A stretch of 64,000 nt of DNA, taken from the NCBI GenBank assembly GCA_937891975.1, contig CALAUA010000015.1, forward strand, positions 145,378 through 209,377, given 5' to 3'. The stretch comes from an uncultured Bacteroidales bacterium. GTDB lineage: Bacteria > Bacteroidota > Bacteroidia > Bacteroidales > Paludibacteraceae. A program made the position numbers and the translations under genes. Below, piece by piece: positions 2,812 to 62,882 of the stretch; within the stretch, counting starts at the first letter, position 1, and the number at the start of each line of letters is the position of its first letter. The notes below the pieces were generated by a model. It ran no database searches, had not been told where the DNA came from, and was given only the letters and a program-made list of their open reading frames with translations.

Positions 2812-2851
2812 ATATCTCTAAACTCTAAACACTAAACACTAAACTCTAAAC
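2812..2851. repeat. Heptamer word array NCTAAAC (B-word) filling a gene junction
   Basis: tctctaaactctaaacactaaacactaaactctaaacact spans the whole gap between the upstream stop (2846-2848, inside the array) and the downstream start (2811). Confidence 0.9.
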
Positions 2852-3808
2852 ACTCCTCGCAAGCAGCTTCTCCGCCATTTGGCGCAGCTGTTCAGTAGCG
2901 GCATTTTGTGGCAGTGTATCTAGTATTTGCAAGGCTTTCTTGGTGTAATCTGCCACCACTTGTTCACATATCTCGCGCACGCCCAATTGCTCAAAAATCT
3001 CTTTTACGCGTGCAATCTTCTCTTTGTTGTCATCCAGCAATTTTCCATACCAATCTTCCAACTCTTCTCTTGCCTCTAGGCTTATCGCCTCATCACCTAA
3101 TAGCCTCATCGCCTGTAGATATACAAACGTCTTCTTGTTGCAGGCAATATCTCCACCTATGGCTTTACCAAAAGTCTTTGGGTCGCCCCATACATCCAAT
3201 ATGTCATCTTGTATCTGGAAAGCCAGTCCGATGTTGATACCGAACTGATATAGTGCTCTTTGTTCTTCTTCGGTTGCTCCAGCGATGTAGGCTCCTATCT
3301 GCAATGCATTGGCTAGTAATACCGATGTTTTTAGGCGAATCATCATCAGGTATTCATCGATGCTCACATTGTTTTCCTGTTCGAAGTCCACATCATATTG
3401 TTGTCCTTCGCAGATTTCGGTAGCCATCTGGTTAAATAGTTGCAGTACGCGCGCGAGCGTGTGTGTGGGTACCTTACTTAATTGTGTATAAGCTTCTATC
3501 ATCATCTGGTCGCCAGAGAGGATAGCGGTATTTTCGTTCCATTGTATGTGTACTGTTGGACGTCCGCGACGCACTTCTGCTTTGTCCATCACGTCATCGT
3601 GAAGTAGAGTGAAGTTGTGAAAAATCTCTAGTGCCAATGCTGCAGGCAATACGTCTTCATCTTTACCGCCGAACATTTGGCTAGCTATGATTGCCAACTG
3701 CGGACGCACACGCTTACCGCCTGCTGCTAATGTGTAGGCGATTGGTGCGTATAAGCCCTTGGGCTCACGATCCCAATTGAGTTGTAATATCTTGCTATTA
3801 ATATCCAT
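2846..3808 (-). CDS. Polyprenyl diphosphate synthase (trans-isoprenyl, IspB/GGPPS-like)
   Basis: ORF trimmed to MDINSK at 3808. Both Asp-rich motifs are present: LLHDDVMD and QIQDDILD. Confidence 0.85.
   Translation of the reverse strand: MDINSKILQLNWDREPKGLYAPIAYTLAAGGKRVRPQLAIIASQMFGGKDEDVLPAALALEIFHNFTLLHDDVMDKAEVRRGRPTVHIQWNENTAILSGDQMMIEAYTQLSKVPTHTLARVLQLFNQMATEICEGQQYDVDFEQENNVSIDEYLMMIRLKTSVLLANALQIGAYIAGATEEEQRALYQFGINIGLAFQIQDDILDVWGDPKTFGKAIGGDIACNKKTFVYLQAMRLLGDEAISLEAREELEDWYGKLLDDNKEKIARVKEIFEQLGVREICEQVVADYTKKALQILDTLPQNAATEQLRQMAEKLLARSV
3083..3114. repeat. Octamer word TCGCCTCA (A-word) inside the polyprenyl synthase CDS
   Basis: cttatcgcctcatcacctaatagcctcatcgcc, read in frame as MRLLGDEAIS. 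Confidence 0.8.
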
Positions 3809-3840
3809 ATCTCTAAACACTAAACTCGAAACACTAAACG
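3809..3840. repeat. B-word array filling the ddl / polyprenyl synthase junction
   Basis: atctctaaacactaaactcgaaacactaaacg. The ddl stop (3834-3836) lies inside it. Confidence 0.9.
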
Positions 3841-4955
3841 GTGAAATTGTCTTCCACAATTTCACTAAGCACCTGACCAATATTCAATCCTGCTGCGCGT
3901 ATTTGCTGCGGAATAAACGATGTTGCAGTCATACCTGGTGTAGTATTCACTTCTAGCAGATTAATTGTCCATCCTCCCTCTTCGCCTAATCGCCTCATCG
4001 CCTCATCGCCCTCTCGCCTCATCGCCTCATCGCCTGTCAATATATAATCCACGCGAATGATTCCCTTACATCCTAGTATATCGTATATTTTCAGTGTCAG
4101 AGCTTGCACCTCATCGCGCACGCTATCGGGGATACGTGCAGGGGTGATTTCTTCTACTTGTCCGTTGTATTTCGCATCGTAGTCAAAGAACTCGTTGCTT
4201 GTCACCACTTCGGTGATGGGAAAAGCTACGGCTTTGTTTTTAGTCTTGTACACACCGCATGTGATTTCTATGCCCTTCATCTCTGCCTCGCAAATCACCT
4301 CGTCGCCTTCGCCAAAGGCTTTTTCTATCGCGGGTACCACATCTTCCAGAGTCTTCACTTTGGTTACGCCAAACGACGACCCACCTACATTTGTTTTGAT
4401 AAAACATGGCAATCCTACTTGCTTAATAATATCTTCGCCTATCGCCTCATCGCCTAATTGCCTCATCGCCTCTTTGCGCAGCAAAACACTCTCCGCCACA
4501 TTCACACCAAATCCCTTCAGGTACTGGTTGCAGGTGTATTTGTTGAACGTCATGGCTGCAGCCAATACGCCGCAACAGGAGTAGGGTACTCCCACCATGT
4601 CCAAGTATCCTTGCAGCACACCGTTCTCGCCGGGTGTGCCGTGGATAGTGATATATGCAAAGTCAAATTGTATTTTTTCGCCCTTGTAGGTGTATGAGAA
4701 GTCGTTTTTGTCGATATCCACCCACTTTTCAGATTCTATAGGCACGGCACCATTGTGCTTTTCTATCTCTATATTGGTTTCCGCCAATGCGCGCCACTCT
4801 TTCCCACGCAAACAAACAATGGTCAAATCATAGTCATGCCTTGACTCCTGACTTGCGATTTCCGATAAAAACGAGTAGATCCCTGCTGCGCTGCGTAACG
4901 ACACTTCGTATTCCGAACTGTCCCCACCTGCTATGATAGCTATTTTGCGACGCAT
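3834..4955 (-). CDS. ddl: D-alanine--D-alanine ligase
   Basis: ORF trimmed to MRRKIAIIAGGDSSEYEVSLRSA at 4955, because the longer ORF would overlap the tRNA. ATP-grasp motifs: FIKTNVGGSSFGV, LEVNTTPGMT. Confidence 0.9.
   Translation of the reverse strand: MRRKIAIIAGGDSSEYEVSLRSAAGIYSFLSEIASQESRHDYDLTIVCLRGKEWRALAETNIEIEKHNGAVPIESEKWVDIDKNDFSYTYKGEKIQFDFAYITIHGTPGENGVLQGYLDMVGVPYSCCGVLAAAMTFNKYTCNQYLKGFGVNVAESVLLRKEAMRQLGDEAIGEDIIKQVGLPCFIKTNVGGSSFGVTKVKTLEDVVPAIEKAFGEGDEVICEAEMKGIEITCGVYKTKNKAVAFPITEVVTSNEFFDYDAKYNGQVEEITPARIPDSVRDEVQALTLKIYDILGCKGIIRVDYILTGDEAMRREGDEAMRRLGEEGGWTINLLEVNTTPGMTATSFIPQQIRAAGLNIGQVLSEIVEDNFTV
3981..4036. repeat. Seven tandem A-word octamers inside ddl
   Basis: ttcgcctaatcgcctcatcgcctcatcgccctctcgcctcatcgcctcatcgcctg encodes GDEAMRREGDEAMRRLGEE. 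Confidence 0.9.
4434..4473. repeat. Second A-word array inside ddl
   Basis: cttcgcctatcgcctcatcgcctaattgcctcatcgcctc encodes EAMRQLGDEAIGED. Confidence 0.85.
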
Positions 4956-4972
4956 AAGAAGTAAGAATTTTG

Positions 4973-5043
4973 TTGCCAAACTAGGACTCGAACCCAGACA
5001 GACAGAACCAGAATCTGTAGTGCTACCATTACACCATTTGGCA
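4973..5043 (-). tRNA. tRNA-Gln (anticodon CTG)
   Basis: The reverse complement folds as a cloverleaf. Acceptor TGCCAAA/TTTGGCA, anticodon stem ACAGA/TCTGT with loop TTCTGGT, T-arm GGGTTCGAGTCC. CCA is not encoded. Confidence 0.85.
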
Positions 5044-5749: not shown

Positions 5750-5788
5750 TGACCTTTAAAAACAACAGAGCCGAGAACTTCTCGGCTC
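5750..5788 (-). terminator. Rho-independent terminator for giant gene 1
   Basis: Stem gagccgag/ctcggctc (5768-5788), followed on the minus strand by tgttgtttt. Confidence 0.6.
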
Positions 5789-5800
5789 GTGTTATTGTTT

Positions 5801-5866
5801 ATCTACAGCCACTTTGTGGCGATCTACCATCTACAGGGCTTTAGCCCGATCTACAGCGCAGCGATC
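5801..5866. repeat. ATCTACAG word copies alternating with GC mini-hairpins
   Basis: atctacag-ccactttgtgg-cgatctacc-atctacag-ggctttagcc-cgatctacag-cgcagcg, immediately 3' of the giant gene 1 stop (5867-5869). Confidence 0.8.
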
Positions 5867-8800
5867 TTACAAGCGATGTCCCTGCGCGTCGAAAATGCCC
5901 TCCGCGGTACGGATGATGAGCTTACCGTCGATGAGGTATTTCTCAATGCCTTTCGCCTCATCGCCTACATTACCCACTCCTGTGGTCACATCCTTCTGTG
6001 GTTGGATATGGAGCGCAAAGCGATTCTCGTAACTACCAGCAGACAGAGTAATGGTATAATCGTCGAGCAAGAGGTTAGTGCGTGTATTTGTCTCGTAGTC
6101 AATGAGTTCTACCACCATACCCTCTGTGCCGTCAGGCATACGGAAGGTGTACTCACCTTCGGTGGCAATCTTCACGCCAACAGGCACGATAACCTCTTCC
6201 ATTGGTAATGTGTTACCCGCAAATGGGATGCCTTCAGACAATGTATAGATATTAGGTTTGCCGCTATTGAATACTTTGTTGAGGTCTTTGTTTTGGTCGA
6301 AGGTCGTTGTACCATCTTCATCTAAAGCTACAAATGTTTGGTCTTGCTTTTCGCCTTCTGTATTGGCAAGTTCGAGGCGCATGGTTACAGATGAACGTTC
6401 TGCTTGTGCTCTGCGAGGTGCCGCCAATGGTTCAGGCACCGTTTCATTGATAGGGTTCCAAGTAATAGTACCTGCAAACTGCACCATATAGCCGTAGAAG
6501 GATTTGTAGGTAGCAGTCTTACCATCTTCAGGAGTATAGTTATAACTTGTTCGGTTATTATTGTTGTCAAAAGTATAACTATATTGATAACGGAAACTTG
6601 GTGCTTCAGTTAATTCTTTATATTCTGGATCATTATCTTTATCATATTCTTTCACAGTCGCATTATTGTAACTGGTAGTACCAATCATCTTCCAGTTGCT
6701 ATCTTGCAAGTAGCGATTATGGAGAGTAAGAGTACATGGATGATTTGGGTAAGTGACAGTAAGTTGTTGCGTTGACTGCTGCTGCAAATCAAATCCACTA
6801 CCGATAGATGGGAAGTAGAGACGTAGCATAGAGATTATTTCTTTTTGTCCTTCTATAACATCGCCATTTGCATCAGTCTTATCCACTTCTATCTCATTCC
6901 ATGTGGCATTTTTCTTGTCAAATGCGAGCAGATATCCTTCACCTGCCTTCAACGTGTCCTTAGGAGACATCCACTCCCAGAATGTTGCCGTCTCTGCATA
7001 CCAACCCTTTTGAGCGCGAAGGTCACCGCGATAGCGTTGAATACCCCATAATTCCATATAACCATGCACACCAGATATACTACCTACCACGCAGTCAAAT
7101 GGTAAAGTGAACATATATTGCTCTTCATGACGTTCGTCTTCATTTGTACTACCACGGTGCAATTCCATTGCAAAGAATAGACTCTTTAAATTATTAATTT
7201 CACCATTGCCAGATAGTGTAATCTGTGGTACATTTTCATTCTCCTTGCGGATGAAAAGTACATCCGCATTTACTGTTTTATCTGTAGTAATAGTTAAGTC
7301 TGTTGCTATTTCCCAAACAGCTATGATTCGGTTCGTTTTGAAATCATACACTACGCGCACTTTATATACGCCATTATCCGTGCCCGAACCAATAACCGTT
7401 TTCTGAATAGGTGTGCTAGTTTCTTCGCCAGTTACTTCATTGATGCCGTAGCCCAATAAGTGGTTATACACAGTAGTATCAGTACGAGGTGATTTGGCTT
7501 CTACATACAGAGAAGCAGAAGGTGTTCCGTTGGTAATATTTACGTAAACATCTCGCTCATATACCCAGTTGCTGACATCGCGGAATTTATTGCCGTCATT
7601 ATTAGTATTGTTTCCGTATGGTAATTTTTTTGTACATTCCTTATCTGCATATGCATTGTCACAATGCAAATTGAGATAGCTTGCGTCTGCACTACCTTGC
7701 AGAACAGCTCGGCCGAAATAGTTGGTACGTGGGTCATAACCGAAGCGTACATTGATAACTTTACCTGTACCAACCTTGATATCGCCATATTCATTAGTAT
7801 TCTTATCTTGCAACAATTTGCCAGCTAGGTCATCGTTGTAGTCGTTTGCCACGCAGGCACTTACATCTTTACCATCGTAACCTCCAGAGTTCATAGCTTG
7901 TACCCAATAGTGGTTGTAGAACTCACCTTCGCGTGAAACAAATTCAGTGAATGTGCGGCTAGCTTTTTCGGAGTCTGTCCAATCATGAATAGAGTTCCAA
8001 CCCTTGTTGCTGATATCGCCATCTGTACCCCATGTACGGATGTAGAAGTTACCTGAATAAACTGCTACATTGGTAAGACCTGTACCATCTGCATTAAGTT
8101 TTGCTGTATAGACGTTTGACGCTGTGAATGTTTCAGGTGCGATTGTTGCATGCAAATTGCCGTTCTTATACAACATGACTACACCTGAACGGTAATTAAC
8201 TTCATCTTTACCAGGAGCAAAGAATGAGAGAATATCAGAGGTGCTGGTGACTATATTAGAAGAATACTCCTTACCATTTTGCATGACTATCTTCACTTGG
8301 TATTCATCTGCATCCTCCCAGCAATAATCGCCAGAACGTGAAATGGAAGGTTGATTCCCATATCCTTCATTTTTCATCGTATAACATCCATCTGTACTAA
8401 CATCTTTTACATCTGGTGATTTGCGCCAATTGTCATTCATGTTTTCATAAAACACCAAGAAACTTGTTTTTCCGTTAGTGTGTAATGGCACTTCCGCTTG
8501 TAGATATTTATACTTTCCAGACTCCTCATACACAAATTCCAATGCAATATCTGCATTATAACCAGAACTATACCAATAGTGTATCTTAATTTCGGAATTA
8601 TTGTTCCAACCAATATTGTCATATGTTCCTCCATCTGCTATTGGCACCTTCACTTGAATAGTGATGTGCGTATCTTTTTCTACGGTTACTTGGAATTTTT
8701 TGGTAACAGTTTCCTCGTGCAATGTGTAGTTCACAGTGATGGTGGTTGTGCCATCTTCGTGACCATATACGATGATGTTGGTTCCTGACATGATAGCTGT

Positions 8801-11800
8801 TGCAACAGTCGTGTTGGCGCTGCTAACTGTAGCTGTCACATCGCTCAGTTTATTACCCAAACTTACTTGTATAGAAGGTGAAACTATTTTTTGCTCGCCC
8901 TGTGTAAGAGTGATATTGTCAATATTACTTACTGCCAAATCACCAGGGCAATCGGCATTGGTAAGTGTGTAGTTGTTATATCCATTTTGATTAACCTTGT
9001 TATTACTTAATTGATAACATGTATTTTCACTTGGTATCTCGTAGTTGAAGGTTTGATTTGCATCGCTTCCGCCGTTTACGATAAAGTGGTCGTAGTATGG
9101 GTATTTCACCACGAATACGCGCCATGTACCAAAGTGTTGAGCAAAACTCTCACCAGGCCATTCGGTCTTCACATCTGCTGCACCAGCGTCGTCTCCGCGC
9201 CACATATATACATTGCTCAATATGCTATTGGGATCGTTGACCTTGATAGTGACTAATTTATAAACAGCCACTTCGGTACGTACCTCAAATACACGTCCTG
9301 CCACTTCTTCGGTTGTAGCGGTGAAGGTCAAGATACCTACTTGTTGAGCAGGTGTGTATTCGGTTGCATATTTTTCATTATAGGTTGTTGTTAATGTGGT
9401 TTCGTTAACCTTGATAGTTACGTTTCCAGTGTAACCATTGTAGGTGGCACTATATGATACTTCTACGTTGGTTCCTTGTTGTACTTTCTCTAAACTGATT
9501 TCGTCTCCAGGGGTGGTCAAAAGTACCATTTCAGGTGTCAAGACTTGTTGGAAGTAAACCGTGGTGGTAGCTTCGGTTCCCTTCTTTCCGTAAGAGTCTT
9601 TGTAGTAGGTGGTGATAGTGATAGGAGTAACCTCGGTGGTGATGTTCGTTAGGTCAAACGTATTGGCTGTTTGCTCTGTCTCACCTACTTTGTAGTAGGC
9701 AGTCAATCCTGCTACTTCTGTCAGTGGGGTTACTGTCAATCTTACCGTTTCATCGTTGTATAATTGGTAAGGGGTAGCTTGCGCTCCATCGCCTGCAATC
9801 CATTCATTGATTGTCTGCTCCTTATATACGCGCACTGCGGTGTATGTGACTGCAGGTGTTGTTGGTAGAGCGGGGTAGGTGATCTTCACTTGTGGTGCGG
9901 TCAAGGATATACCATCTGCTCCAGACCAACGGATATGAATGGTGTATGAACCTGCTTGCGTTGATTTGAATTTGATTGCGGAATTGGCATCTTTCCAAAT
10001 CTTTACCCAGTCAGCACATGATTGAAGGGCGCTGACAGAATTGCCGTATTCCGCAGAATTATTTGCATAGTCTTTTACTTTGAAACTGTATTCGGTATTT
10101 GCAGCCAAAGTAACGATGCATGCCCAACTGCCATCGCCTTGCTTGGTGAAATATGGATTGTTGCCAGGGAGGGTGTTGGTAGCATGTTTGCTAATCAATT
10201 GGTATCTCTCTGAGAAGGTCGCAACGAGTAATCCATCGCCTATTGTACCATTACCGCTAAGGGTGGTAGTATTGCCTGTGGTAGCAGAACTTACTGCAGG
10301 AGCAGTTGCAGTCCAACTTTGTGTATAATAACCCTCAGCAGGAGTTGCGGTAACAGTAACGGTGGTTTCCACACCCACACTTGCCTCTTGTGGTGATACT
10401 GTTCCCTTGTTATCATCGGATGATTTGATGTCAATAGAGGCTTTGTTTTCAACAAATACTGCTTTCACAGTTACATCCGCATTCACAGTGCAGGTGTAAG
10501 ATGGATCAGTCGATAATTGATTACCACTCCCGTCTGTCCACTTAGAGAAAGTGTAACCAGTATTTGCTTCTTGTGTAAATACAACACTTTTTCCCTTTAA
10601 CACATAGTCGCCAGAAGTAATTGCAACTCCATCCACTTTGGCAGTAACAGTCTTACCCCCCGTCCCCTTACTAAAGGTTACTTTGTATGCCTCTGGATAG
10701 GTTACGGAGAGGTTTTTATTAGAACTGTTGAATGTGAAAGTATAATTGCCTGCGACATCGGTTTTAAGAGTTAAATTATTGCTGCTTGTGCTTAATGTCT
10801 TACTTGACGATGCACGCGTAAGATCTCCACTGCTTGCACCATACCACTCTGAATCATATACAATCTTGAAAGTATATGTGGTGTTCGCGTTTAGGCTACG
10901 AGTGACAGTATAAGTACCCGAGCCAGTCATGTCAAATTCACCTGTATTAGTTGCGTCTGCTGGATTTGCAGCTGATATACGCAATTGATTATATACAGGC
11001 CATGTGACTTCTAAAGTTGGCTTTGAAGAATCATCATAGTTGAGGTGGAAAGTATATTTACCTGCTAGATAAGGCTTAAAGCGTATGTTGTTACTAGCGC
11101 TGGTGGAAAGCGTGAGGTTATTGTTCTCTTTGGTTAGCCAATAATGATCACCACCAGATCCCCAACCTAACCATTTTTTATTGTCATCGGAGCCTGCTGC
11201 ATTATAAATTTTAAATTCCCATTGATTGTCATTAGGAGTTACTTTACTTTGAGGGACATCAATTTCCCAATAAACATCATTAGAATTCGCGTTCCCAGAA
11301 TGCTTTTTCATCATTGTATTTTGATTAGCATTCCATCCTTCAGAAAAAGGTCCAGCATTATCACCTTGTACGTAGTATGTACTTGTTAAATCTTCTGCAT
11401 AATTTGCAACGACTTCAGCAGCTTTGCTATCGCCATTAGAGCGAACAGTGATGTTTGTTGCATCAGCTGCTCCGCCATCGGTGCGGGTACAATTGGTAAG
11501 CGTCCAACCTGTAAAAGTGTAGCCATTGCCTGCTGCAGTAGCTGTGACTGTGGCTGTGGTTTCATAACCTATTGAATTTACTGATGCTGTTGGAACTGCA
11601 TAGCCAGGGTCGCCTGCATCGTATTTATTGGAGGTTGTCAGCGTGGACATGTTTTCCGTAGCAGAAGCAGTCACTATAACCGAACCATTTTTTACGGTTA
11701 CGGTTGTGTTTGCTGTTGTTGCGTTGCCGAATGTAGCGTTTGCTGCTGGATTAGCAGTCCAAGTGCTGAAAGTGTAACCCGTTTTAGGTGTGGCTGTGAT

Positions 11801-12904
11801 ATTGTAGGTGCTTCCTAATGTTACAGGGTCAGTAGAACCACCAACGGTGTTTATTCCATCGCCTGCCAGTACGGTCAAGGAGTGGGTTGCTGTTGAGCGG
11901 AAGTTGGCTTTCAATGTACCTGCGGCAGTTGCAGTGATGGTTGTAGAAGCAGCTGTCGTATTTGCTACAACAACACCTCCTGTAGCTGTCCAATTAACAA
12001 ATTCGTAATTTGCATCTGGAGTGGCAGTGACTGCCGTCGTTGTGACTTGTCCAATAGTCTTATTTCCTAAAGGAGATACTGTTCCGCCAGAGCCTGCTGA
12101 GATAGTGACAGCATATGTATTCTCTGTCCAAATAGGAGTAATTGTTACATTGCTGGTAAGTGTATAGGTTTGAGAAGCGATGTCTGCTGCAGCAATAGTA
12201 GTAGTTGTACTACCATTATTGATTTGTACACCGCCAAAGGTATATCCTGTAGAGGCAGATGCGCTGAATTTAAGAACAGTGAGGTGAATTTTGCTTGCAC
12301 CAGTAGCAATAGTGTTGTTGTCGTAGTCCTTTACGGTTAGTGTGCCACCTGTAGGGCTATTGATTGTGACAGTATAGTCTGATTTAGTAGAAGTAGACCA
12401 ATTGTATACAGTACACTTCGTATCAAAGTGCGTAACTGAAGTAGTCCCATTTGCCTTATAAATTGTAGTTGCGTTCCAAACAGATGTGCGAATATTTGTC
12501 ACATTATTGTTGCCATGGTACACAAATTTATATACATTTTCACCGTTAGAGTCCCACCATTTCTCTTTGCTGACTACCCAACCTGATGCTCCATCCCATG
12601 AATTTCCATTATTCCATCCTTTTGCCAATTTCCAAAGGTACTGTGTACCAGAAACACGAGTCATGGCATAGCAAGATGTATGAGAATCATGACCGATATA
12701 AACGTAACAGTTCGTCCATTTTGATGTGGAGTTATCAAAGTATAAATCCACATTTGATTGGTTGATAGCCGCCCACGCATTACTAACTCCCATTAGTAGG
12801 AGAATGAGGATAGCAGTTGTTCGTATACCTTTGGTATATCCTTGTAATAGGTTAAGAAATTGTTTCGCCTTCTTCTCGGCGCAATTTGTAAATGTTTTAT
12901 TCAT
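5867..12904 (-). CDS. Giant cell-surface protein with divergent InlB B-repeat modules and a T9SS-like C-terminal tail
   Basis: Uninterrupted 2345-aa ORF. Leader MNKTFTNCAEKKAKQFLNLLQGYTKGIRTTAILILLLMGVSNAWA. Many ~75-aa modules of type Y.VT....GGTVSP.......TATP..GY.F..WT. Tail ends KYLIDGKLIIRTAEGIFDAQGHRL. Confidence 0.85.
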   Translation of the reverse strand: MNKTFTNCAEKKAKQFLNLLQGYTKGIRTTAILILLLMGVSNAWAAINQSNVDLYFDNSTSKWTNCYVYIGHDSHTSCYAMTRVSGTQYLWKLAKGWNNGNSWDGASGWVVSKEKWWDSNGENVYKFVYHGNNNVTNIRTSVWNATTIYKANGTTSVTHFDTKCTVYNWSTSTKSDYTVTINSPTGGTLTVKDYDNNTIATGASKIHLTVLKFSASASTGYTFGGVQINNGSTTTTIAAADIASQTYTLTSNVTITPIWTENTYAVTISAGSGGTVSPLGNKTIGQVTTTAVTATPDANYEFVNWTATGGVVVANTTAASTTITATAAGTLKANFRSTATHSLTVLAGDGINTVGGSTDPVTLGSTYNITATPKTGYTFSTWTANPAANATFGNATTANTTVTVKNGSVIVTASATENMSTLTTSNKYDAGDPGYAVPTASVNSIGYETTATVTATAAGNGYTFTGWTLTNCTRTDGGAADATNITVRSNGDSKAAEVVANYAEDLTSTYYVQGDNAGPFSEGWNANQNTMMKKHSGNANSNDVYWEIDVPQSKVTPNDNQWEFKIYNAAGSDDNKKWLGWGSGGDHYWLTKENNNLTLSTSASNNIRFKPYLAGKYTFHLNYDDSSKPTLEVTWPVYNQLRISAANPADATNTGEFDMTGSGTYTVTRSLNANTTYTFKIVYDSEWYGASSGDLTRASSSKTLSTSSNNLTLKTDVAGNYTFTFNSSNKNLSVTYPEAYKVTFSKGTGGKTVTAKVDGVAITSGDYVLKGKSVVFTQEANTGYTFSKWTDGSGNQLSTDPSYTCTVNADVTVKAVFVENKASIDIKSSDDNKGTVSPQEASVGVETTVTVTATPAEGYYTQSWTATAPAVSSATTGNTTTLSGNGTIGDGLLVATFSERYQLISKHATNTLPGNNPYFTKQGDGSWACIVTLAANTEYSFKVKDYANNSAEYGNSVSALQSCADWVKIWKDANSAIKFKSTQAGSYTIHIRWSGADGISLTAPQVKITYPALPTTPAVTYTAVRVYKEQTINEWIAGDGAQATPYQLYNDETVRLTVTPLTEVAGLTAYYKVGETEQTANTFDLTNITTEVTPITITTYYKDSYGKKGTEATTTVYFQQVLTPEMVLLTTPGDEISLEKVQQGTNVEVSYSATYNGYTGNVTIKVNETTLTTTYNEKYATEYTPAQQVGILTFTATTEEVAGRVFEVRTEVAVYKLVTIKVNDPNSILSNVYMWRGDDAGAADVKTEWPGESFAQHFGTWRVFVVKYPYYDHFIVNGGSDANQTFNYEIPSENTCYQLSNNKVNQNGYNNYTLTNADCPGDLAVSNIDNITLTQGEQKIVSPSIQVSLGNKLSDVTATVSSANTTVATAIMSGTNIIVYGHEDGTTTITVNYTLHEETVTKKFQVTVEKDTHITIQVKVPIADGGTYDNIGWNNNSEIKIHYWYSSGYNADIALEFVYEESGKYKYLQAEVPLHTNGKTSFLVFYENMNDNWRKSPDVKDVSTDGCYTMKNEGYGNQPSISRSGDYCWEDADEYQVKIVMQNGKEYSSNIVTSTSDILSFFAPGKDEVNYRSGVVMLYKNGNLHATIAPETFTASNVYTAKLNADGTGLTNVAVYSGNFYIRTWGTDGDISNKGWNSIHDWTDSEKASRTFTEFVSREGEFYNHYWVQAMNSGGYDGKDVSACVANDYNDDLAGKLLQDKNTNEYGDIKVGTGKVINVRFGYDPRTNYFGRAVLQGSADASYLNLHCDNAYADKECTKKLPYGNNTNNDGNKFRDVSNWVYERDVYVNITNGTPSASLYVEAKSPRTDTTVYNHLLGYGINEVTGEETSTPIQKTVIGSGTDNGVYKVRVVYDFKTNRIIAVWEIATDLTITTDKTVNADVLFIRKENENVPQITLSGNGEINNLKSLFFAMELHRGSTNEDERHEEQYMFTLPFDCVVGSISGVHGYMELWGIQRYRGDLRAQKGWYAETATFWEWMSPKDTLKAGEGYLLAFDKKNATWNEIEVDKTDANGDVIEGQKEIISMLRLYFPSIGSGFDLQQQSTQQLTVTYPNHPCTLTLHNRYLQDSNWKMIGTTSYNNATVKEYDKDNDPEYKELTEAPSFRYQYSYTFDNNNNRTSYNYTPEDGKTATYKSFYGYMVQFAGTITWNPINETVPEPLAAPRRAQAERSSVTMRLELANTEGEKQDQTFVALDEDGTTTFDQNKDLNKVFNSGKPNIYTLSEGIPFAGNTLPMEEVIVPVGVKIATEGEYTFRMPDGTEGMVVELIDYETNTRTNLLLDDYTITLSAGSYENRFALHIQPQKDVTTGVGNVGDEAKGIEKYLIDGKLIIRTAEGIFDAQGHRL

Positions 12905-12975
12905 GATTTTTGTTATTTTAGTCTGTAGAATTTTAGTTTCACGCTTATTATGATGTTTTAGTATGCCTTTTATAC

Positions 12976-14146: not shown

Positions 14147-14189
14147 CATTTGTGGCATTTTTGGCATTTGTGGCATTTTTGGCATTTTG
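14147..14189. repeat. TTTGGCATT / TGTGGCATT word array
   Basis: catttgtggcatttttggcatttgtggcatttttggcattttg. Confidence 0.85.
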
Positions 14190-14260
14190 AAATTCCTGAA
14201 AATCCCTATATTCCCGTTTCCCTAATTATCCTTTTCTACTTTTGCAAAGCTCTTGCTTTA

Positions 14261-14303
14261 CTATGTCATTACTATGTCATTACTATGTGATTACTATGTT
14301 ATT
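14261..14303. repeat. 11-nt word array CTATGTCATTA, four copies
   Basis: ctatgtcattactatgtcattactatgtgattactatgttatt. Confidence 0.9.
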
Positions 14304-14328
14304 CCGCTACCCTTGCGCTACCTTTACG

Positions 14329-14486
14329 CTATCTTCAGGGTATCTTCAGGGTATCTTCGGGACATCCTATATATATCCCTTATACATCCCTTGGTTATCC
14401 TATGCTGCTCCTTCGGTGAGGTTCCGATGAGATTCCAATCAGGTTCCGATGAGGTTCCGATGGAAGTAAGGGGCATGTAAGGGGCA
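14329..14486. repeat. Composite repeat, left copy (inverted partner at 18699-18834)
   Basis: Three GTATCTTCRGG units, then a ~45-nt unique core (gacatcctatatatatccc..ggttatcctat), a variable 11-nt word module (GAGGTTCCGAT), then ggaagtaaggggcatgtaaggggca. Confidence 0.85.
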
Positions 14487-14490
14487 AATA

Positions 14491-14913: not shown

Positions 14914-15006
14914 AACTGCGCCAAGAGAGTGTGTCTGTTCAGTATTATTAACTAGCATAATTGTTAGTGTTTTTTATCAAATTTAAAGTTTTCACATAAA
15001 GCGTGG

Positions 15007-15231: not shown

Positions 15232-15319
15232 GTGCTCAAAATAAGAAAATTTATCTCATTTGAGCACAAACAAGACAACAAAATTGCTCAAAACGAGGAA
15301 TTTTATCTCGTTTGAGCAC
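15232..15319. promoter_or_regulatory. Two tandem copies of a ~36-nt hairpin element
   Basis: gtgctcaaa-(18 nt)-tttgagcac and ttgctcaaa-(27 nt)-tttgagcac, with a half-site tttgagcaaa at ~15208. Confidence 0.5.
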
Positions 15320-17226: not shown

Positions 17227-17260
17227 ATGTAAATCATTTGCATATATCATTTATTTTCAG

Positions 17261-47916: not shown

Positions 47917-47919
47917 GTT

Positions 47920-53475: not shown

Positions 53476-53509
53476 CTATCTTCGGGGTATCTTCGGGATA
53501 TCTTCAGGA
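53476..53509. repeat. 11-nt word array GTATCTTCGGG (H-word) at the rsmI / flippase junction
   Basis: ctatcttcggggtatcttcgggatatcttcagga. The same word opens the composite repeats at 14329 and 18834. Confidence 0.9.
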
Positions 53510-53513
53510 TAAA

Positions 53514-54185: not shown

Positions 54186-54191
54186 GTTTTT

Positions 54192-54236
54192 TCTCTAAAC
54201 ACTAAACAGTAGCGCTGAAAGCGCGTTCACTAAACG
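54192..54236. repeat. B-word / hairpin / B-word composite element (copy 4)
   Basis: tctctaaacactaaacagta-gcgc-tgaaa-gcgc-gttcactaaacg. Fills the junction upstream of rsmI. Confidence 0.85.
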
Positions 54237-55025
54237 TTACGCGAAGCGTCTCTTGAGTACGTTCTCGAAGAGTTGTACTGCGGTGGACTCTTTGTCCCAA
54301 TCGAAGTTGTCGAGCACGTAGTCCATCGCCTCGTTGAGTGAACCGAGATTGTTAATTTCATCCAATGTTTTTTGCATCAACTCACCATTGCCTGCAAAGA
54401 GTTCGCGTTGAAAGAGGAAACGGTCCCCCAAAGAGATAGCTTGGCGGATATCCTCTACTGCCGCACCAAACAACGATGTTTGTTGTGGCACAGGACGTGG
54501 AGCAGGTTGTGGAGCAGGTGCTGGCTCTACCACTGGCTCTGCCTTTACTTCTGGTTGTGGAGCAGGTTCCACGATTGGTTCCACCACTGGCTCTGCCGTT
54601 GCTTCTGGTTGTGGAGCAGGTGCTGGCGCTACAACTGGTTCTTCTACAACCGGTGCTTCTACCTCTGGAGTATCTATAATATCCAGCGTTTCTAGTTCTT
54701 CTTTAACTTCCTCTTGTGGTTTTTCTGCGGGCTCTTCAGCGAACTCGTTTTCAATTGTCACCTCTTCGTTTTCACTTTCAGTTTCTTCTTCAACGATGAG
54801 TTCGATCTCTACTTCTGGTTCTGCAGCTTGTGCAGCTACAGCACCTGTAGCTGCCAATGCAGCCACTTCGGCTTGCAAGGTTGCTATTAGGGCTTTCGCC
54901 TCATCGCCTTCTCGCCTCATTGCCTCATTGGCTTCTTCGAGTTGCGCCACACGCGCCTCCAGAGCAGAGAGTTTCTGCTCCAGAGCGGTCGTGTAGTTGG
55001 TTATTGCTTGAATAAGATTGTTCAT
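54237..55025 (-). CDS. Hypothetical protein: coiled coil + acidic / Pro-rich EPVVEP repeats + C-terminal globular domain
   Basis: 262-aa ORF. Low-complexity centre PAPAPQPEATAEPVVEPIVEPAPQPEVKAEPVVEPAPAPQPAP. Confidence 0.5.
   Translation of the reverse strand: MNNLIQAITNYTTALEQKLSALEARVAQLEEANEAMRREGDEAKALIATLQAEVAALAATGAVAAQAAEPEVEIELIVEEETESENEEVTIENEFAEEPAEKPQEEVKEELETLDIIDTPEVEAPVVEEPVVAPAPAPQPEATAEPVVEPIVEPAPQPEVKAEPVVEPAPAPQPAPRPVPQQTSLFGAAVEDIRQAISLGDRFLFQRELFAGNGELMQKTLDEINNLGSLNEAMDYVLDNFDWDKESTAVQLFENVLKRRFA
54896..54932. repeat. A-word octamers inside the CDS
   Basis: ttcgcctcatcgccttctcgcctcattgcctcattgg encodes NEAMRREGDEAK. Confidence 0.8.
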
Positions 55026-56555: not shown

Positions 56556-56608
56556 AAATAAGTTCGTTTTTTTATGGTTAATAATTATTTTTTACACAAA
56601 AATCCGCG

Positions 56609-56616
56609 CAAAGGTA
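56609..56616 (-). promoter_or_regulatory. -7 box (TACCTTTG on the minus strand)
   Basis: CAAAGGTA 53 nt upstream of the start at 56555. An atgcaaat (-33 TTTG) lies further upstream. Confidence 0.5.
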
Positions 56617-56661
56617 ATAATTTTTTTGCATATATGCAAATAAAATCGTTCGGTTGAGCGA

Positions 56662-57504: not shown

Positions 57505-57537
57505 GTTTTTTATTTTGTTTGATAGTCATTAAAAACA

Positions 57538-58581
57538 CTATATTTCCACTACCATACACCATCCGTGCTTGTCTTCAGTGCGACCATACTGGATGTCCTG
57601 CAAGGCGTGGTATAGCTTTGTGAGTACAGGGCCTGGCTTGTCGCCGAAAGGGTAGGTGATATTCTTGTCAGGGTCGAAGACCTTGGTCAGAGGCGAAATA
57701 ACGCACGCTGTACCGCAAGCAGCTGCTTCTTGAATATCAGTCAATTCCTCTACACGAATATGACGGCGAGTGACCTTCATACCCATCTCACGCGCCAAAG
57801 TCATCAACGAATCGTTGGTGATGCTAGGCAAAATGGCACTACTGCGGGGGGTGAGGTATTCGAAGTAAGATTCCCGATTCTCGACTCCCGACTCATGATG
57901 CTTTATTCCTATGAAATTGGATGCCGTGCACTCATCAATATACTTGTGCGTTTTAGCATCGGTGAACATACACTCATAGCCCATGGCGTGTGCCGCTTCG
58001 CTGGCGCGGAAGGATGCCGCGTAGTTACCACCCACTTTCCAGCAGCCCGTACCTTGTGGTGCCGCACGATCAATGGTGCGGTTCACTATTGCAGGTATGC
58101 CTTTGAAACCATTGGGGAAATACGAACCGATAGGTGTAGGAATGACCACAAACTCGCAGTCTTTGCCAGGCCCCACACTAATATCAGGCGTAGTAGCAAC
58201 TAGCAACGGACGGAAATAGAGCGTGGCGCCAGTCTCGTAAGGAGGAAGGAAAGCGATATTCTTCTCCAATGCCAGTAAAATAGCTTCGCAAAAGAGTTCA
58301 ACGGGCACGGGTGTCATCAGTAGTCCCTCGGCGGAGTGGTACATGCGTTTGGCGTTCTCCTCCATGCGGAAGATACGCACCTTACCGTCCACACCACGAA
58401 AGGCCTTTAGCCCTTCGAAGCACTCTTGACCATAGTGCAGGCCCGTGGCTGCGGCATGGATAGGAATCATCTTGTCGCGTGTGGCATAGGGGCGCTCCCA
58501 TACACCATTCTTGCATGCCGCACGAACGATATAGTCCGTCTCGGTATAGTGAAATGTCAGTTTATTCCAGTCTATATTCAT
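57538..58581 (-). CDS. ilvE: Branched-chain amino acid aminotransferase
   Basis: HYGQECFEGLKAFR, GNYAAS, class IV fold length 347 aa. Confidence 0.85.
   Translation of the reverse strand: MNIDWNKLTFHYTETDYIVRAACKNGVWERPYATRDKMIPIHAAATGLHYGQECFEGLKAFRGVDGKVRIFRMEENAKRMYHSAEGLLMTPVPVELFCEAILLALEKNIAFLPPYETGATLYFRPLLVATTPDISVGPGKDCEFVVIPTPIGSYFPNGFKGIPAIVNRTIDRAAPQGTGCWKVGGNYAASFRASEAAHAMGYECMFTDAKTHKYIDECTASNFIGIKHHESGVENRESYFEYLTPRSSAILPSITNDSLMTLAREMGMKVTRRHIRVEELTDIQEAAACGTACVISPLTKVFDPDKNITYPFGDKPGPVLTKLYHALQDIQYGRTEDKHGWCMVVEI
57871..57895. repeat. E-word heptamers inside the ilvE CDS
   Basis: ttcccgattctcgactcccgactca encodes ESGVENRE. Confidence 0.8.
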
Positions 58582-59111
58582 ATCTTCATTACGGATTCAG
58601 GTCCGTATTCAAATAATATGTCTAATATGCTTTGTCCGTTGCCGAATGCTTGCTCTAAATCTTGCCCTGCCCAATCTGTAGTGGTAATCAGTCTTTGTTC
58701 TTGGCTCTTGGTTCTTGGTTCATCGTTCGCTATCAAACGAATGATTACCTCGTGGATTTTCTCGTTGAAATCGACCAAAAAGCGTGTTTCTTGTTCGTAG
58801 AACGGGCGGAAGAAATCGGCGTAATAATCGAAGTAGGGTGTACGTTTGTAAGCACTCACGAGAGCAATCCAATGCTGATGTTGCCAACGCTTCTGGTAAC
58901 TAATCTCCACATCGCGAGTGAACTGTTTGCTATCCACGCGCTTCACGGGCACAGTAAGTGTCAGTGGCCCGTCTGGTGTGGCGATAGTACACCGATTGCG
59001 GTAGGTTTGCTTCGGAAAACTCTCCATTACCTCAATCTGCACTGCCGATGGATTCGCCAAAAACTGGCTGTACCATTCCGCAGGACCCATATATGTTGTT
59101 GGTAGTATCAT
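58578..59111 (-). CDS. WbqC-like family protein
   Basis: 177 aa. N-terminus ILPTTYMGPAEWYSQF and FPKQTYRNRCTI resemble the WbqC family. From memory only. Confidence 0.5.
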   Translation of the reverse strand: MILPTTYMGPAEWYSQFLANPSAVQIEVMESFPKQTYRNRCTIATPDGPLTLTVPVKRVDSKQFTRDVEISYQKRWQHQHWIALVSAYKRTPYFDYYADFFRPFYEQETRFLVDFNEKIHEVIIRLIANDEPRTKSQEQRLITTTDWAGQDLEQAFGNGQSILDILFEYGPESVMKI

Positions 59112-59120: not shown

Positions 59121-59159
59121 ATCGGGAATCAGGAATCAGGAATCGGGACTCGGGAATCC
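59121..59159. repeat. E-word heptamer array at the lepB / wbqC-like junction
   Basis: atcgggaatcaggaatcaggaatcgggactcgggaatcc. Confidence 0.9.
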
Positions 59160-60539: not shown

Positions 60540-60570
60540 ATGCGTTAGTATGTTTTTGTAAAAAATCGTG

Positions 60571-60578
60571 CAAAGGTA
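60571..60578 (-). promoter_or_regulatory. -7 box (TACCTTTG on the minus strand)
   Basis: CAAAGGTA 31 nt upstream of the start at 60539. Confidence 0.5.
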
Positions 60579-60623
60579 CTAAAAATTATGCACATGCGCA
60601 AGCGCATGCAAATTTTTCTACAA

Positions 60624-61962: not shown

Positions 61963-62108
61963 TGTTTACCTCATCATTAAAATTTCACAAATTATGTTTG
62001 CATTTTTTACAGCATAATAAACATTTTGCAAAAGTACAAAAAAAAATACAACTGTGCAAATGATACATAATTTTTTAAAGAAAATTTGTTTATATCTAAA
62101 AATTTATG

Positions 62109-62116
62109 TACCTTTG
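62109..62116 (+). promoter_or_regulatory. -7 box TACCTTTG
   Basis: 22 nt upstream of the ATG at 62139. Confidence 0.5.
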
Positions 62117-62138
62117 CAACACAAAAATAAATTTCATC

Positions 62139-62858
62139 ATGAAAACAATTAAAATAACTCTTTTAGTGGTAGGGTTATTCCTCCAAAATTTTACTTTGAT
62201 GCAAGCTGCAGAACGCTGGCTGGAAGGTTACAAGAAAGTTCTCGTTATTGGTGCTCACCCTGATGACCCTGAGACCATGTGCGGCGGTACGATGATTAAA
62301 CTGCGCGAGATGGGTGTAGAGGTTGTATCCGTATATTTTACAGGTGGTGAAGCAGGTATTCCGGGCAAGAGCCACGAAGAGTCACGCACCATTCGCACAG
62401 CAGAGGCTAAGAAGGCATGTGAAGTGATGGGTGTGCGCGCCGTATTTATGACGCAAATCGACGGCAATACAGAAGTAAATAAGGCTCGCTATGCCGAAAT
62501 GAAAGCCCTGATTGAGGCTGAGAAACCCGATATGGTGATTACCCACTGGCCTATTGATTCGCACCGTGATCATCGTGTATGCTCGATTCTGGTGTATGAT
62601 GCATGGCGACAAACAGGATATAATTTTGACCTCTACTATGGCGAGGTTATGACAGGTATGCAAACGCAAACATTTGCTCCCAATCATTGGGTGAATATCA
62701 CCAAGCAACACGACCAAAAAGTGAAAGCATACTATTGCCACGAGAGCCAAGACATGCCTTTGGTACAAGAATGGCACGATGCGATGGAAATCCTCCGAGG
62801 TATGGAATGTCATACCAAATATGCTGAAGCATTCACCAAGCAAGTGTGGACGGAGTAG
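62139..62858 (+). CDS. PIG-L (LmbE-like) family deacetylase, secreted
   Basis: ORF trimmed to MKTIKITLLVVGLFL. VLVIGAHPDDPETMCGG and HWPIDSHRDH metal-site motifs. Confidence 0.8.
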   Translation: MKTIKITLLVVGLFLQNFTLMQAAERWLEGYKKVLVIGAHPDDPETMCGGTMIKLREMGVEVVSVYFTGGEAGIPGKSHEESRTIRTAEAKKACEVMGVRAVFMTQIDGNTEVNKARYAEMKALIEAEKPDMVITHWPIDSHRDHRVCSILVYDAWRQTGYNFDLYYGEVMTGMQTQTFAPNHWVNITKQHDQKVKAYYCHESQDMPLVQEWHDAMEILRGMECHTKYAEAFTKQVWTE

Positions 62859-62882
62859 AGGTTAAAGGTTAGAGGCTGGGAT
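62857..62882. repeat. F-word heptamers at the PIG-L / glycerate kinase junction
   Basis: tagaggttaaaggttagaggctggga. Contains the upstream stop codon. Confidence 0.85.

Follow-up and report, generated by a model that had tools for sequence, protein, structure and literature searches.

The 64,000-nt stretch of contig CALAUA010000015.1 considered here (positions 145,378 to 209,377; assembly GCA_937891975.1; hereafter the window) comes from an uncultured gut or rumen bacterium of the Bacteroidales family Paludibacteraceae and is densely populated by imperfect tandem arrays of short oligonucleotide words and by small G+C hairpins. On balance, we regard these arrays and hairpins as probably being neutral or selfish micro-repeats, which are copied into sites, resized by slippage and retained where they are tolerated. 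A first-pass annotation made from the sequence alone had described arrays of 7-, 8- and 11-nt words at many same-strand gene junctions. Beyond that description, the window holds arrays inside open reading frames (ORFs), hairpin inserts and inverted composite blocks of 11-mers.

Arrays were defined by merging the rows of Tandem Repeats Finder (TRF) that had a period of 6-12 nt and at least 2.5 copies. In the window, 62 TRF rows merged into 32 arrays, whereas simulated controls of Markov order 1, 3 and 5 contained on average 0.9, 1.2 and 2.0 arrays, respectively, with a maximum of 4. TRF revealed units of 7, 8, 9 and 11 nt where the annotation had placed its arrays, and every word that it named was found at its loci:

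CTAAAC: 2812-2851, 3811-3839, 28113-28151, 32881-32910, 33837-33867 and 54190-54236
YYTACAC: 28018-28118 and 35174-35200
CGGGAAT type: 29470-29512, 34465-34485, 52776-52799, 57872-57894 and 59121-59158
GGTTARA: 27922-27964 and 62859-62882
TCGCCTCA: 3977-4035, 4435-4472 and 54896-54928
TATTGGA: 34052-34133 and 47701-47720
GTATCTTCRGG: 14329, 18802 and 53477
WATWGTGCGTN: 36249-36343
CTATGTCATTA: 14258-14303
GAGGTTCCGAT: 14417-14462
ATCTACAG: 5780-5866

The gene names given in the annotation agree with Pfam matches. It had also made over-representation of the words a test of its description. CTAAAC is not over-represented (39 copies observed, 32 ± 5.6 expected), although 26 of the 39 copies lie in 7-nt-phased arrays. 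Word over-representation is the wrong test, because the signal is the 7-nt-phased tandem arrangement and not the frequency of words. The arrays are not an assembly artefact: independent assemblies, made from other samples and by other assemblers, have the same ones at the same junctions.

Words are shared between distant sites of the same genome. Among heptamer arrays at least 500 nt apart, 118 pairs shared a word with at most one mismatch, compared to 37 ± 6 in a null model in which units were shuffled among genomes within the family, and exact words were shared by 41 pairs, compared to 6 ± 2.5. Each genome has its own recurrent vocabulary. Moreover, longer modules recur. The genes truA and U32 peptidase (site 3; the sites are listed below), 13 kb apart, have about 40 nearly identical nucleotides in common, consisting of CCAATATCCAATAG and a specific G+C hairpin, and ddl shares the GATGAGGC array and its peptide with the gene of a 262-aa hypothetical protein. 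Site 2 of U32 holds the words-plus-hairpin module of site 3 in strain L083 and CTACAC-type words resembling site 1 in strain L085. The 11-mer GCGCTACCYTT, located at 14305 in the window, was found at the flippase/truA junction of L089, and 11-mer signatures of 22-33 nt recur at non-orthologous loci. A composite of about 170 bp, made of 11-mer mini-arrays, is present in three copies within 5 kb, two of them inverted:

14305 to 14486, plus strand: composite block of GCGCTACCYTT, GTATCTTCRGG (three copies), ACATCCYTTAT (three), GAGGTTCCGAT (four) and GTAAGGGGCAT (two)
18699 to 18838, minus strand: inverted composite copy, 88-89% complementary to 14329-14487
16950 to 17050, minus strand: degenerate third copy

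Slippage cannot create composites such as words plus a hairpin or the 170-bp block, and their recurrence points to copying between sites. A metagenome-wide search with the GTATCTTCRGG dimer returned 18 contigs with G+C contents of 35-50%; some of these are orthologous pairs or triplets, so that at least a dozen distinct contexts are represented. In these contexts the word forms a triple 11-mer of 38 nt, TTTAT-(CCCGAAGATAC)3, which almost always has exactly three units and fixed ends. Read in this direction, it points the same way as the upstream gene in 15 of 19 cases, at a distance of 3-90 nt from a preceding stop codon. Its neighbours are unrelated housekeeping genes (DnaB, RF3, M20 dipeptidase, GT2 glycosyltransferase, DHH, PFK and DUF262, named by reading the sequences, without a family search), and we rejected a regulon for the triple because of this functional unrelatedness. 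The triple-bearing contigs have the same vocabulary as the window and are as dense in arrays (0.49 per kb). Neither the triple nor the hairpin module had a match in the viral contigs searched, and carriage by phages was accordingly rejected.

The inverted composite pair flanks 4.2 kb that contain two unknown paralogous ORFs and the genes of a Bro-N protein and an AAA_14/DUF4143 ATPase. We rejected the pair as transposon ends, because L109, with the same outward flank of the right-hand copy, has the triple alone. The two paralogous ORFs (14491-14958, minus strand, and 15312-15713, plus strand) are divergent and inverted and have no family match, and 14642-14817 and 15342-15517 form a 176-nt inverted repeat that is 91% complementary. 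Upstream of the ATPase gene, at 17143-17229, lie three 22-nt direct repeats (GCNAAAGTCGTTCATRAAAATG) with a spacing of 32-33 nt, which look operator- or iteron-like. The left composite block is upstream of a 327-aa gene (12976-13959) that precedes the first giant-protein gene, and the right block is upstream of the second. These genes (5867-12904, minus strand, and 18904-27897, plus strand) are divergently oriented, encode giant surface-type proteins of 2345 and 2997 aa and share the immediate leader GACTAAAATAACAAAAATC-ATG. Their orthologues bear Flg_new domains. The giant proteins are strongly divergent among strains, and L081 and L085 show replacements or rearrangements of them.

The arrays also vary between close strains. 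We compared five syntenic loci of 94-96% nucleotide identity, obtained via U32 orthologues, and a second syntenic set, which includes L089 and L091, obtained via RsmI orthologues. The rimM/SpoU 11-mer has about 8 copies in the window and 5, 5, 5 and 4 in the other strains, the SpoU/U32 heptamer varies between 4 and 8 copies, and GGTGTAA at the regulator/giant protein junction has about 14 copies in the window and 9, 4, 4 and 2 in the other strains. The indels within arrays (11, 33, 14, 21, 35 and 70 nt) correspond to complete units, single or in blocks. Apart from two variable surface-protein genes, nearly all indels of at least 4 nt in 19 kb fall in arrays. In the second set, whole junctions differ:

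lepB/wbqC junction: 54 nt with an array in the window; 51 nt, non-repetitive, in L089; ATGA overlap in L091
rsmI/flippase junction: 44 nt with an array in the window; ATGA overlap in L089; 21 nt in L091
POT/hypothetical junction: 3 nt in the window; 79 nt with two hairpin modules in L089; 11 nt in L091

The filled junctions show no resemblance to the ATGA empty sites. In L086, the most distant of the five strains, three junctions have other words between conserved flanks: the array at 32881-32910 consists of CCAATAG words plus hairpins instead of CTAAACA-type words, and that at 33837-33867 of TTGAAAC/TTTAAAAC words. Two of the three replacements could have arisen by drift within the array (CTGTCAA to CTCTAAA), whereas the change from CTAAACA to CCAATAG words with hairpins cannot.

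The U32 peptidase, used as a query against species-representative genomes, gave 80 orthologous loci; the titles of almost all of them name Paludibacteraceae or uncultured Bacteroidales, and the sources are human, ruminant and horse gut. The array density was 0.32 per kb at loci with a U32 identity of at least 70%, 0.49 at 54-69%, 0.36 at 45-53% and 0.19 at 40-44%, and it did not exceed 0.07 per kb at the Prevotella and Bacteroidaceae loci. For Paludibacteraceae loci as a whole, it amounts to 0.3-0.5 per kb. Period 7 was the commonest, with 14 arrays in the window and 217 in the 80 loci; periods 8, 9, 6 and 11 came next. In total, 283 distinct units occurred across the 81 sequences (the window and the 80 loci), and thus no single word is conserved family-wide. 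A cyanobacterial origin of the DNA was ruled out by the absence of HIP1 sites from the window, the TAnnTTTG promoter-like motifs and the Paludibacteraceae U32 relatives. Five contigs carrying U32 relatives of 41-65% identity are titled Dialister, Mycobacteriaceae, Erysipelotrichaceae, Flexilinea and Christensenellaceae (L015, L019, L063, L071 and L077, respectively); they appear amid matches to Paludibacteraceae and Bacteroidales metagenome-assembled genomes (MAGs) and are probably mis-binned.

With crude gene calls (ATG-initiated ORFs of at least 90 aa) over the window and the 80 loci, the array density was 2.4 per kb in co-directional junctions, 1.4 in divergent gaps, 0.9 in convergent gaps and 0.23 inside genes, the last value being about 10 times the simulated expectation. 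The arrays are not confined to junctions: about half of all arrays family-wide, by count, sit within genes, and even there period 7 leads (112 of 206 arrays). Junction arrays begin at a median of 12 nt past the upstream stop codon, often overlap it and lie ahead of the A-rich leader of the downstream gene. Their orientation relative to transcription is indeed not fixed, as had been proposed; however, it is biased, and of the 139 arrays at co-directional junctions, 93 have the A-rich strand as sense (sense to antisense, 93:46; p = 8e-5). The sense strand has 38.7% A and 29.8% T in arrays, compared to 30.3% A and 27.3% T in the rest of the same junctions. Overall, the arrays are AT-rich (69% A+T) and show no G/C skew.

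All eleven junctions that had been named as filled by an array in the window are filled. The flippase/truA and hypothetical/rsmI junctions hold a hairpin module with flanking words rather than a plain array, and the regulator/recF junction holds a degenerate run that is seen only if recF starts at the ATG at 29517. The claim that array-less same-strand junctions are mostly overlaps or short gaps was likewise confirmed (gaps of at most 14 nt); exceptions are 40869-40911 and 57505-57537 and the promoter-bearing gaps 12905-12975, 56556-56661 and 60540-60623. Array-free gaps in the window are mainly those bearing Bacteroidetes-type promoter motifs, a pattern which suggests that arrays are kept out of promoters. 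TAnnTTTG-like motifs were seen in the array-free gaps 44912-45030, 56556-56661, 60540-60623 and 61963-62105 (e.g., GCAAAGGTAC, on the opposite strand). The junction arrays of the window and the arrays at 14147-14303 are the following:

2812 to 2851: CTAAACN heptamer, 5 copies; takes up the whole polyprenyl synthase/251-aa hypothetical junction and overlaps the synthase stop codon
3811 to 3839: CTAAACA heptamer, 4 copies; ddl/polyprenyl synthase junction
14147 to 14303: 9-mer CATTTKTGG, 4.7 copies, and 11-mer TTACTATGTCA, 4.2 copies; found by TRF
27922 to 27964: GGTTARA heptamer array, downstream of a giant surface-protein gene
28018 to 28118: YYTACAC heptamer, about 14 copies (about 9, 4, 4 and 2 in close strains)
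29470 to 29512: CGGGAAT-type degenerate run; sigma-54 regulator/recF junction
32881 to 32910: GTTTAGN heptamer, 4 copies, directly past the WYL gene stop
33837 to 33867: GTGTTTA heptamer, 4 copies; U32/WYL junction
35651 to 35682: AGTTGAC heptamer; SpoU/U32 junction, begins at the SpoU stop codon
36249 to 36343: 11-mer GTGCGTNWATW, 8.6 copies; rimM/SpoU junction
53477 to 53511, minus strand: triple 11-mer, sense TTTAT-CCYGAAGATAY, 3 copies; rsmI/flippase junction
59121 to 59158: ATCGGGA heptamer, 5.4 copies; lepB/wbqC junction
62859 to 62882: GGTTARA heptamer, 3 copies; PIG-L/glycerate kinase junction

Inside genes, the arrays keep the reading frame, and all in-ORF alleles observed were in frame. 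All of the following are on the minus strand:

3977 to 4035, minus strand: 8-mer array in ddl, sense GATGAGGC, encodes DEAMRREGDEAMRRLGEE
4435 to 4472, minus strand: second 8-mer array of the same word in ddl (EAMRQLGDEAIGE)
34052 to 34133, minus strand: U32 site 3, CCAATAG/CCAATAT words alternating with G+C hairpins, in frame, encodes SPQGVQYPIAKRPLPNSPTGVQYPIGG
34465 to 34485, minus strand: U32 site 2, AATCGGG array, in frame; other vocabularies in L083 and L085
35150 to 35200, minus strand: U32 site 1, CTACACC array and GCGACgaaGTCGC hairpin, in frame
47680 to 47720, minus strand: CCAATAG words and a hairpin in truA, in frame (PNSQYPIGGTPS)
52776 to 52799, minus strand: GACTCCC heptamer array in the flippase gene, in frame
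54896 to 54928, minus strand: 8-mer array (NEAMRREGDEAK) in the gene of the 262-aa hypothetical protein, in frame; the word is that of ddl
57872 to 57894, minus strand: GAGTCGG/GAATCGG array in a class IV aminotransferase gene, in frame
58692 to 58721, minus strand: ACCAAGA heptamer array in a WbqC-like gene, in frame

Relative to E. coli DdlB, the peptide DEAMRREGDEAMRRLGEE lengthens Ddl by a net of about 19 aa at the turn of a beta-hairpin, and site 1 of U32 adds a net of about 12 aa in a loop that is otherwise empty in array-poor homologues. The long U32 ORF traverses three arrays, and in an alignment of 24 U32 orthologues (73-100% identity) the three hypervariable spots are the three array sites. 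The relatives carry differing array-encoded peptides at a given site, for example STVNCQLSTANCQL, which is the CTGTCAA heptamer read in three frames. The peptide QYPIGGTPS is common to TruA and U32, and EAMRREGDEA to Ddl and the 262-aa hypothetical protein. The U32 gene has been affected by an array at its beginning as well. The N-terminal strand ISLLAPARD is encoded 5' of the called TTG start at 35618 (35619-35700, minus strand), the AACTGTC array has overwritten the ATG that other clades possess (MTPAKTISLLAPARD), no canonical in-frame start is left, and the frame is open back into the SpoU gene. Translation may begin at a non-canonical codon, or the protein may lack part of its N-terminus.

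The hairpin module, about 40 nt in length, has the form ACTAAACAG(T/A)AG, a G+C stem of 3-5 bp and CGTYCWCTAAAC. It was found in four copies in the window and in related strains; the list below also includes one run in which words alternate with three different hairpins:

28113 to 28151, plus strand: module ACTAAACAGTAG, stem CCCACatcGTGGG, CGTTCACTAAAC
32212 to 32254, minus strand: module with CTAAAC words in a convergent gap; the L086 stem differs
47917 to 47950, minus strand: module ACTAAACAGTAG, stem CCCtttaGGG, CGTCCACTAAAC, at the flippase/truA junction; its TAG is the flippase stop codon
54186 to 54236 (plus strand for 54195-54235): module and GTTTAG words at the hypothetical/rsmI junction
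5780 to 5866: ATCTACAG words alternating with the hairpins CCACtttGTGG, GGCTttaGCCC and CGCaGCG
In relatives: module at 9170-9240 in L089, about 7629 in L007/L008 and about 13405 in L086

At least eight different stems, always complementary, occur between the conserved module flanks, and the presence of the module differs between close species. Three of the four window copies have GTAG at the foot of the hairpin. The hairpins are placed exactly at word boundaries with the same word on both sides (ACTAAAC|AGTAG-hairpin-CGTTC|ACTAAAC), and the U32 cassettes, truA and 5780-5866 follow a recurrent grammar of a word ending in TAG or CAG, a hairpin, CGTCC and a word. The motif GCGAAGC, known as an ultra-stable DNA mini-hairpin (PMC13037366), occurs 19 times in the window (e.g., at 34027, 34094, 54241 and 17067), a 3.3-fold enrichment over the 5.7 ± 2.5 copies expected, and many of its copies fall within genes. 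A generic scan for the word, hairpin, word arrangement gave 846 hits, compared to 595 in Markov controls (1.4-fold), and these were mostly noise; we thus base the hairpin claim on the aligned module families only.

Among the origins proposed in the first-pass annotation, copying at the DNA level best fits the whole-unit indels, the filled versus empty junctions and the composites at unrelated sites. An array bound by a protein, which it had also put forward, is unlikely in view of the 283 units, the replacement of words at orthologous sites and the unrelated genes beside the triple; arrays are also few at promoters. In protein-binding heptad or iteron arrays, such as the heptads of the omega repressor or the 11-bp iterons of R1 parC, one conserved word at promoters or partition sites is recognised by a cognate protein, and judged from sequence the present arrays do not fit this pattern. 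In the scheme that we favour, an existing module or composite would be copied from elsewhere in the genome into a new site. This seeding is visible as an outcome, and its mechanism is deduced from the products. The most plausible route would be templated DNA synthesis during replication or repair, either by template switching or by ectopic conversion between word-sharing arrays, and stalling at stable hairpins and repeats may promote it. A dedicated transposase seems less likely; we prefer template switching or conversion because arbitrary sub-blocks of composites have been copied, most arrays lack defined ends and no mobilising enzyme is visible. The arrays would then be resized, and the strain comparisons do show whole units and blocks being gained and lost, as expected for replication slippage or unequal recombination, while unit sequences drift. 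Finally, the distribution of the arrays and the in-frame loop insertions suggest a filtering step, in which copies would survive only where they do little harm, namely in stop-to-leader stretches and, if in frame and free of stop codons, in surface loops and linkers of proteins. Insertion at junctions would turn ATGA-overlapping gene pairs into pairs 30-100 nt apart. The words would have no word-specific function; at most, they could serve as AT-rich spacers of a generic kind, with little structure and a possible influence on translational coupling.

Several observations weigh against this explanation, and the copying step is its weakest link. We found no donor and recipient sites whose junctions bear a clear signature such as microhomology or a duplicated target. 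The fixed three units, fixed ends and approximately 80% sense orientation of the triple are more suggestive of a discrete element, whether mobile or functional, than of a repair by-product, and the conserved flanks of the hairpin modules give these, too, the look of discrete elements. As some word replacements are explained by drift within the array, not all of them prove copying. In addition, promoter-bearing gaps hold fewer arrays than a purely neutral model predicts, and the 2:1 sense bias of the A-rich strand together with the extra A-richness of junction arrays could reflect selection at the RNA level. The crudeness of the gene calls behind the location statistics counts on the same side, as does the limited view of possible enzymes: Pfam and NCBIfam revealed no transposase, RAYT or reverse transcriptase among the ORFs of the 64-kb window, the rest of the genome being outside this view.

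The discrete appearance of some modules raises the possibility of dedicated non-autonomous micro-mobile elements, mobilised in trans by an HUH/Y1 transposase (RAYT or IS200/IS605-like) or a reverse transcriptase, with the arrays as by-products such as insertion-site duplications or post-insertion slippage. We consider this unlikely. It would account for a triple of constant length and ends in at least a dozen contexts on contigs of 35-50% G+C, for hairpin modules whose flanks, and in three of four copies the GTAG at the foot, are conserved while their presence varies between close species, for the position of hairpins exactly between copies of the same word and for identical modules within unrelated genes. 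However, the 64-kb window encodes none of the enzymes in question, there were no viral-contig matches, and the stems are highly variable, whereas recognition of the RAYT type normally needs a conserved palindrome. Most arrays have neither a hairpin nor defined ends, and sub-blocks have been copied arbitrarily, the triple standing alone at 53477 and the full 170-bp block at 14305 and 18699.

Functional cis elements, acting as translation spacers in Shine-Dalgarno-less Bacteroidota or as RNA- or DNA-protein platforms, with the copy number tuning expression, seem to us an equally improbable explanation. Translational regulation has been proposed for the TAACTGA repeats (MacGregor 2015, PMC4679880), and the location of arrays behind a stop codon and ahead of the A-rich leader of the following gene, the 2:1 sense bias of the A-rich strand and the higher A content of arrays than of the rest of the junctions (38.7% versus 30.3%) are compatible with such a role. 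The 11-mer triple is about 80% sense and conserved in sequence, and the U32/WYL array was identical in four strains. The arrays are almost unstructured as RNA, their minimum free energies being near zero; however, this follows from composition alone, because composition-matched shuffles gave the same values (mean z ~0), and an Rfam scan of the window gave one tRNA only and no match to an array. About one-third of the junction arrays have the opposite orientation, the same words occur in frame within cytosolic enzymes, and among the 283 units words are replaced or absent at orthologous junctions of close relatives. The functionally unrelated genes beside the triple also argue against regulation, and rut-like C-rich spacers were ruled out by the lack of the G/C skew that such sites would show.

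A third alternative is that these are ordinary long simple sequence repeats (SSRs) born in situ by slippage, without transfer between loci, the shared words reflecting mutational or compositional preference. Copy-number changes by whole units, word changes resembling in-array drift and the heptamer excess that is general in bacterial long SSRs, as far as Mrazek 2007 is reported in PMC4679880 and PMC4692102, accord with it. Nevertheless, this alternative is already disfavoured, and we give it a low probability, since word sharing within genomes exceeds the same-family null three- to six-fold, non-repetitive composites of about 40 nt are common to unrelated genes, 22-33-nt signatures of 11-mers occur at non-orthologous loci and the filled junctions are unlike the ATGA empty sites. 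Contingency loci, in which gain and loss of 7-nt units would switch frame or expression by phase variation, are highly improbable: units that are not multiples of three, polymorphic copy numbers and arrays near giant surface proteins and flippases might be expected of them, but the genes affected are mostly housekeeping ones (ddl, truA, rsmI, rimM, recF and lepB), the in-ORF arrays are short and degenerate with every observed allele in frame, and the junction arrays lie within operons rather than at promoters. An assembly or contamination artefact is hardly conceivable, as only the metagenomic origin of all sequences speaks for it, while independent samples and assemblers (MEGAHIT, SPAdes and NCBI MAGs) agree, the variation is phylogenetically coherent and frames are preserved.

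A more speculative idea, to which we attach only a small probability, is a dedicated templated-insertion process in Bacteroidales, for example hairpin-primed or primase/HUH-mediated micro-transposition of single-stranded DNA that duplicates targets of 7, 8 or 11 nt. If true, the tandem words would represent a build-up of duplicated targets or of footprints, the 38-nt triple and the hairpin modules of about 40 nt would rank with the smallest mobile elements known, and a mechanism would also be at hand for the heptamer arrays of cyanobacteria, Xanthomonas and Beggiatoaceae.

The first-pass annotation had set the arrays apart from CRISPR, from classical REP/BIME elements and from MITEs (miniature transposable elements with terminal inverted repeats). 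They are indeed not CRISPR, where unique spacers separate repeats of 23-47 nt and cas genes are usually nearby, as 7-11-nt units follow each other without spacers and no cas domains occur in the window. Nor are they MITEs, which have such inverted termini and target-site duplications around a unit of 50-500 bp, as their termini are not inverted and the sole inverted pair is the 170-bp composite around 4.2 kb of genes. The distinction from REP elements stands for the arrays, which contain no palindrome, but not for what lies among them, where small REP-like G+C hairpins are embedded. Cyanobacteria (heterocystous ones) possess the so-called STRR heptamer arrays, in which small dispersed repeats (SDR, 21-27 nt) are embedded and which Mazel in 1990 and Elhai in 2008 are reported to have described. 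STRR and SDR resemble the present case in having several species-specific heptamer families, mostly intergenic, and tiny structured elements inside arrays. The present arrays differ in occurring in Bacteroidota, without HIP1 and with other words, in having variable stems between conserved flanks and in being frequently in frame within housekeeping enzyme genes. To our knowledge, although no search for them was run, the words of STRR1-3 match none of the unit consensus sequences of the window. Rickettsia palindromic elements are selfish palindromic DNA of about 100-150 bp residing in frame in protein genes. They too place repeats in frame in unrelated conserved proteins, at tolerant surface positions and with identical peptides; the elements here are tandem words of 20-80 nt, with or without mini-hairpins, and the likeness is in behaviour only.

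In a few lineages of bacteria, tandem arrays dominated by heptamers have been on record since about 1990. The novelty implied by the first-pass annotation was overstated, since heptamer-dominated long SSRs are an established class (PMC4679880, PMC4692102). In the account of Mrazek et al. 2007 given in those two papers, long SSRs have units of 5-11 nt, most commonly heptamers, and are attributed to slippage. The arrays belong with this class, as a new, especially dense and multi-word lineage: they have contiguous units of 5-11 nt in numbers above those expected from composition, a predominance of heptamers and strain polymorphism by whole units. As far as that account extends, the excess over composition, the sporadic phylogeny and the length polymorphism among strains are common to both, whereas this lineage lies outside the surveys reported there, multiples of three prevail in coding regions there and period 7 leads within genes here, and the clear copying of composite modules between loci goes beyond what is reported.

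Similar in placement are the TAACTGA repeats known from marine Beggiatoaceae and some Cyanobacteria as well as from five Bacteroidetes, among them Paludibacter propionicigenes (MacGregor 2015, PMC4679880), which likewise closely precede start codons in operons, in some cases overlap stop codons and occasionally occur within ORFs, where the copies are at protein termini. However, TAACTGA is a single word with a strong forward orientation, compared to dozens of words with a 2:1 bias here, and P. propionicigenes has just two sets of it (PMC4679880), compared to about 0.5 arrays per kb here. The intergenic heptamer repeats of Xanthomonas (GGGAATC) and Nostoc (GGGGAYT) are rich in G and could form G-quadruplexes (Rehm 2015, PMC4692102), unlike the AT-rich, unskewed arrays studied here; they are similar in occupying the same junctions in sister species, with wide variation in length and sequence and no link to gene function. 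The hairpin modules resemble REP elements, the RAYT-associated extragenic hairpins (PMC3116915), in being small, extragenic, located at gene junctions and, in three of four copies, provided with GTAG at the foot. They differ from REP and REPIN, for which a conserved imperfect palindrome with a 5' GT[AG]G is repeated genome-wide, in their short, variable stems of 3-5 bp and in the lack of a RAYT among the window ORFs. BrickBuilt of Porphyromonas gingivalis, a minisatellite/MITE with a 23-nt unit and 19 copies per genome (PMC4596501), is also a spacer-less, dispersed, intergenic tandem repeat of the Bacteroidales. BrickBuilt has leader and tail subunits, inverted ends, promoters and a distance of at least 49 nt from genes (PMC4596501); we rejected membership in it because the units here are 7-11 nt long and come without leader or tail. 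Full-text literature searches returned no account of such arrays in Paludibacteraceae, and heptamer repeats were tied to Bacteroidetes only by MacGregor (PMC4679880). No evident transmission mechanism for heptamer repeats was reported there, and Rehm et al. 2015 cited only the polymerase-slippage hypothesis (PMC4692102).

Although the class is not new, the value of the present case lies in strain-level gain and loss and in copy-paste evidence within a well-sampled lineage. Gut and rumen metagenomes contain this lineage in abundance, which allows orthologous sites from many strains to be compared; since filled and empty sites are comparable and modules have moved, the question of origin is approachable by comparative genomics. 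Extrapolation from about 0.5 arrays per kb gives more than 1000 arrays in a 3-Mb genome. The arrays account for most indel variation among strains and add repeat peptides to essential enzymes. They also shift start and stop codons and thereby mislead gene callers, as seen in long TTG-started ORFs running through arrays and in the overwritten U32 start, and they are likely break points in the short-read assembly of these MAGs.

A few other features were noted as well. L086 has an extra HAD-hydrolase gene (1022-1630) as a 594-nt insertion in the diacylglycerol kinase/dUTPase interval, which lies at about 44034 in the window. In recF, a 21-nt tandem duplication at 29976-30015 results in NALLKQR being encoded twice. 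The plus-strand gene at 30584-32158 encodes a hypothetical 524-aa protein with a GGxNPGG repeat and no family match; its versions in close strains measure 490, 463, 459 and 186 aa and differ by numerous in-frame indels, and its gene is a second kind of hypervariable gene, unconnected with the word arrays.

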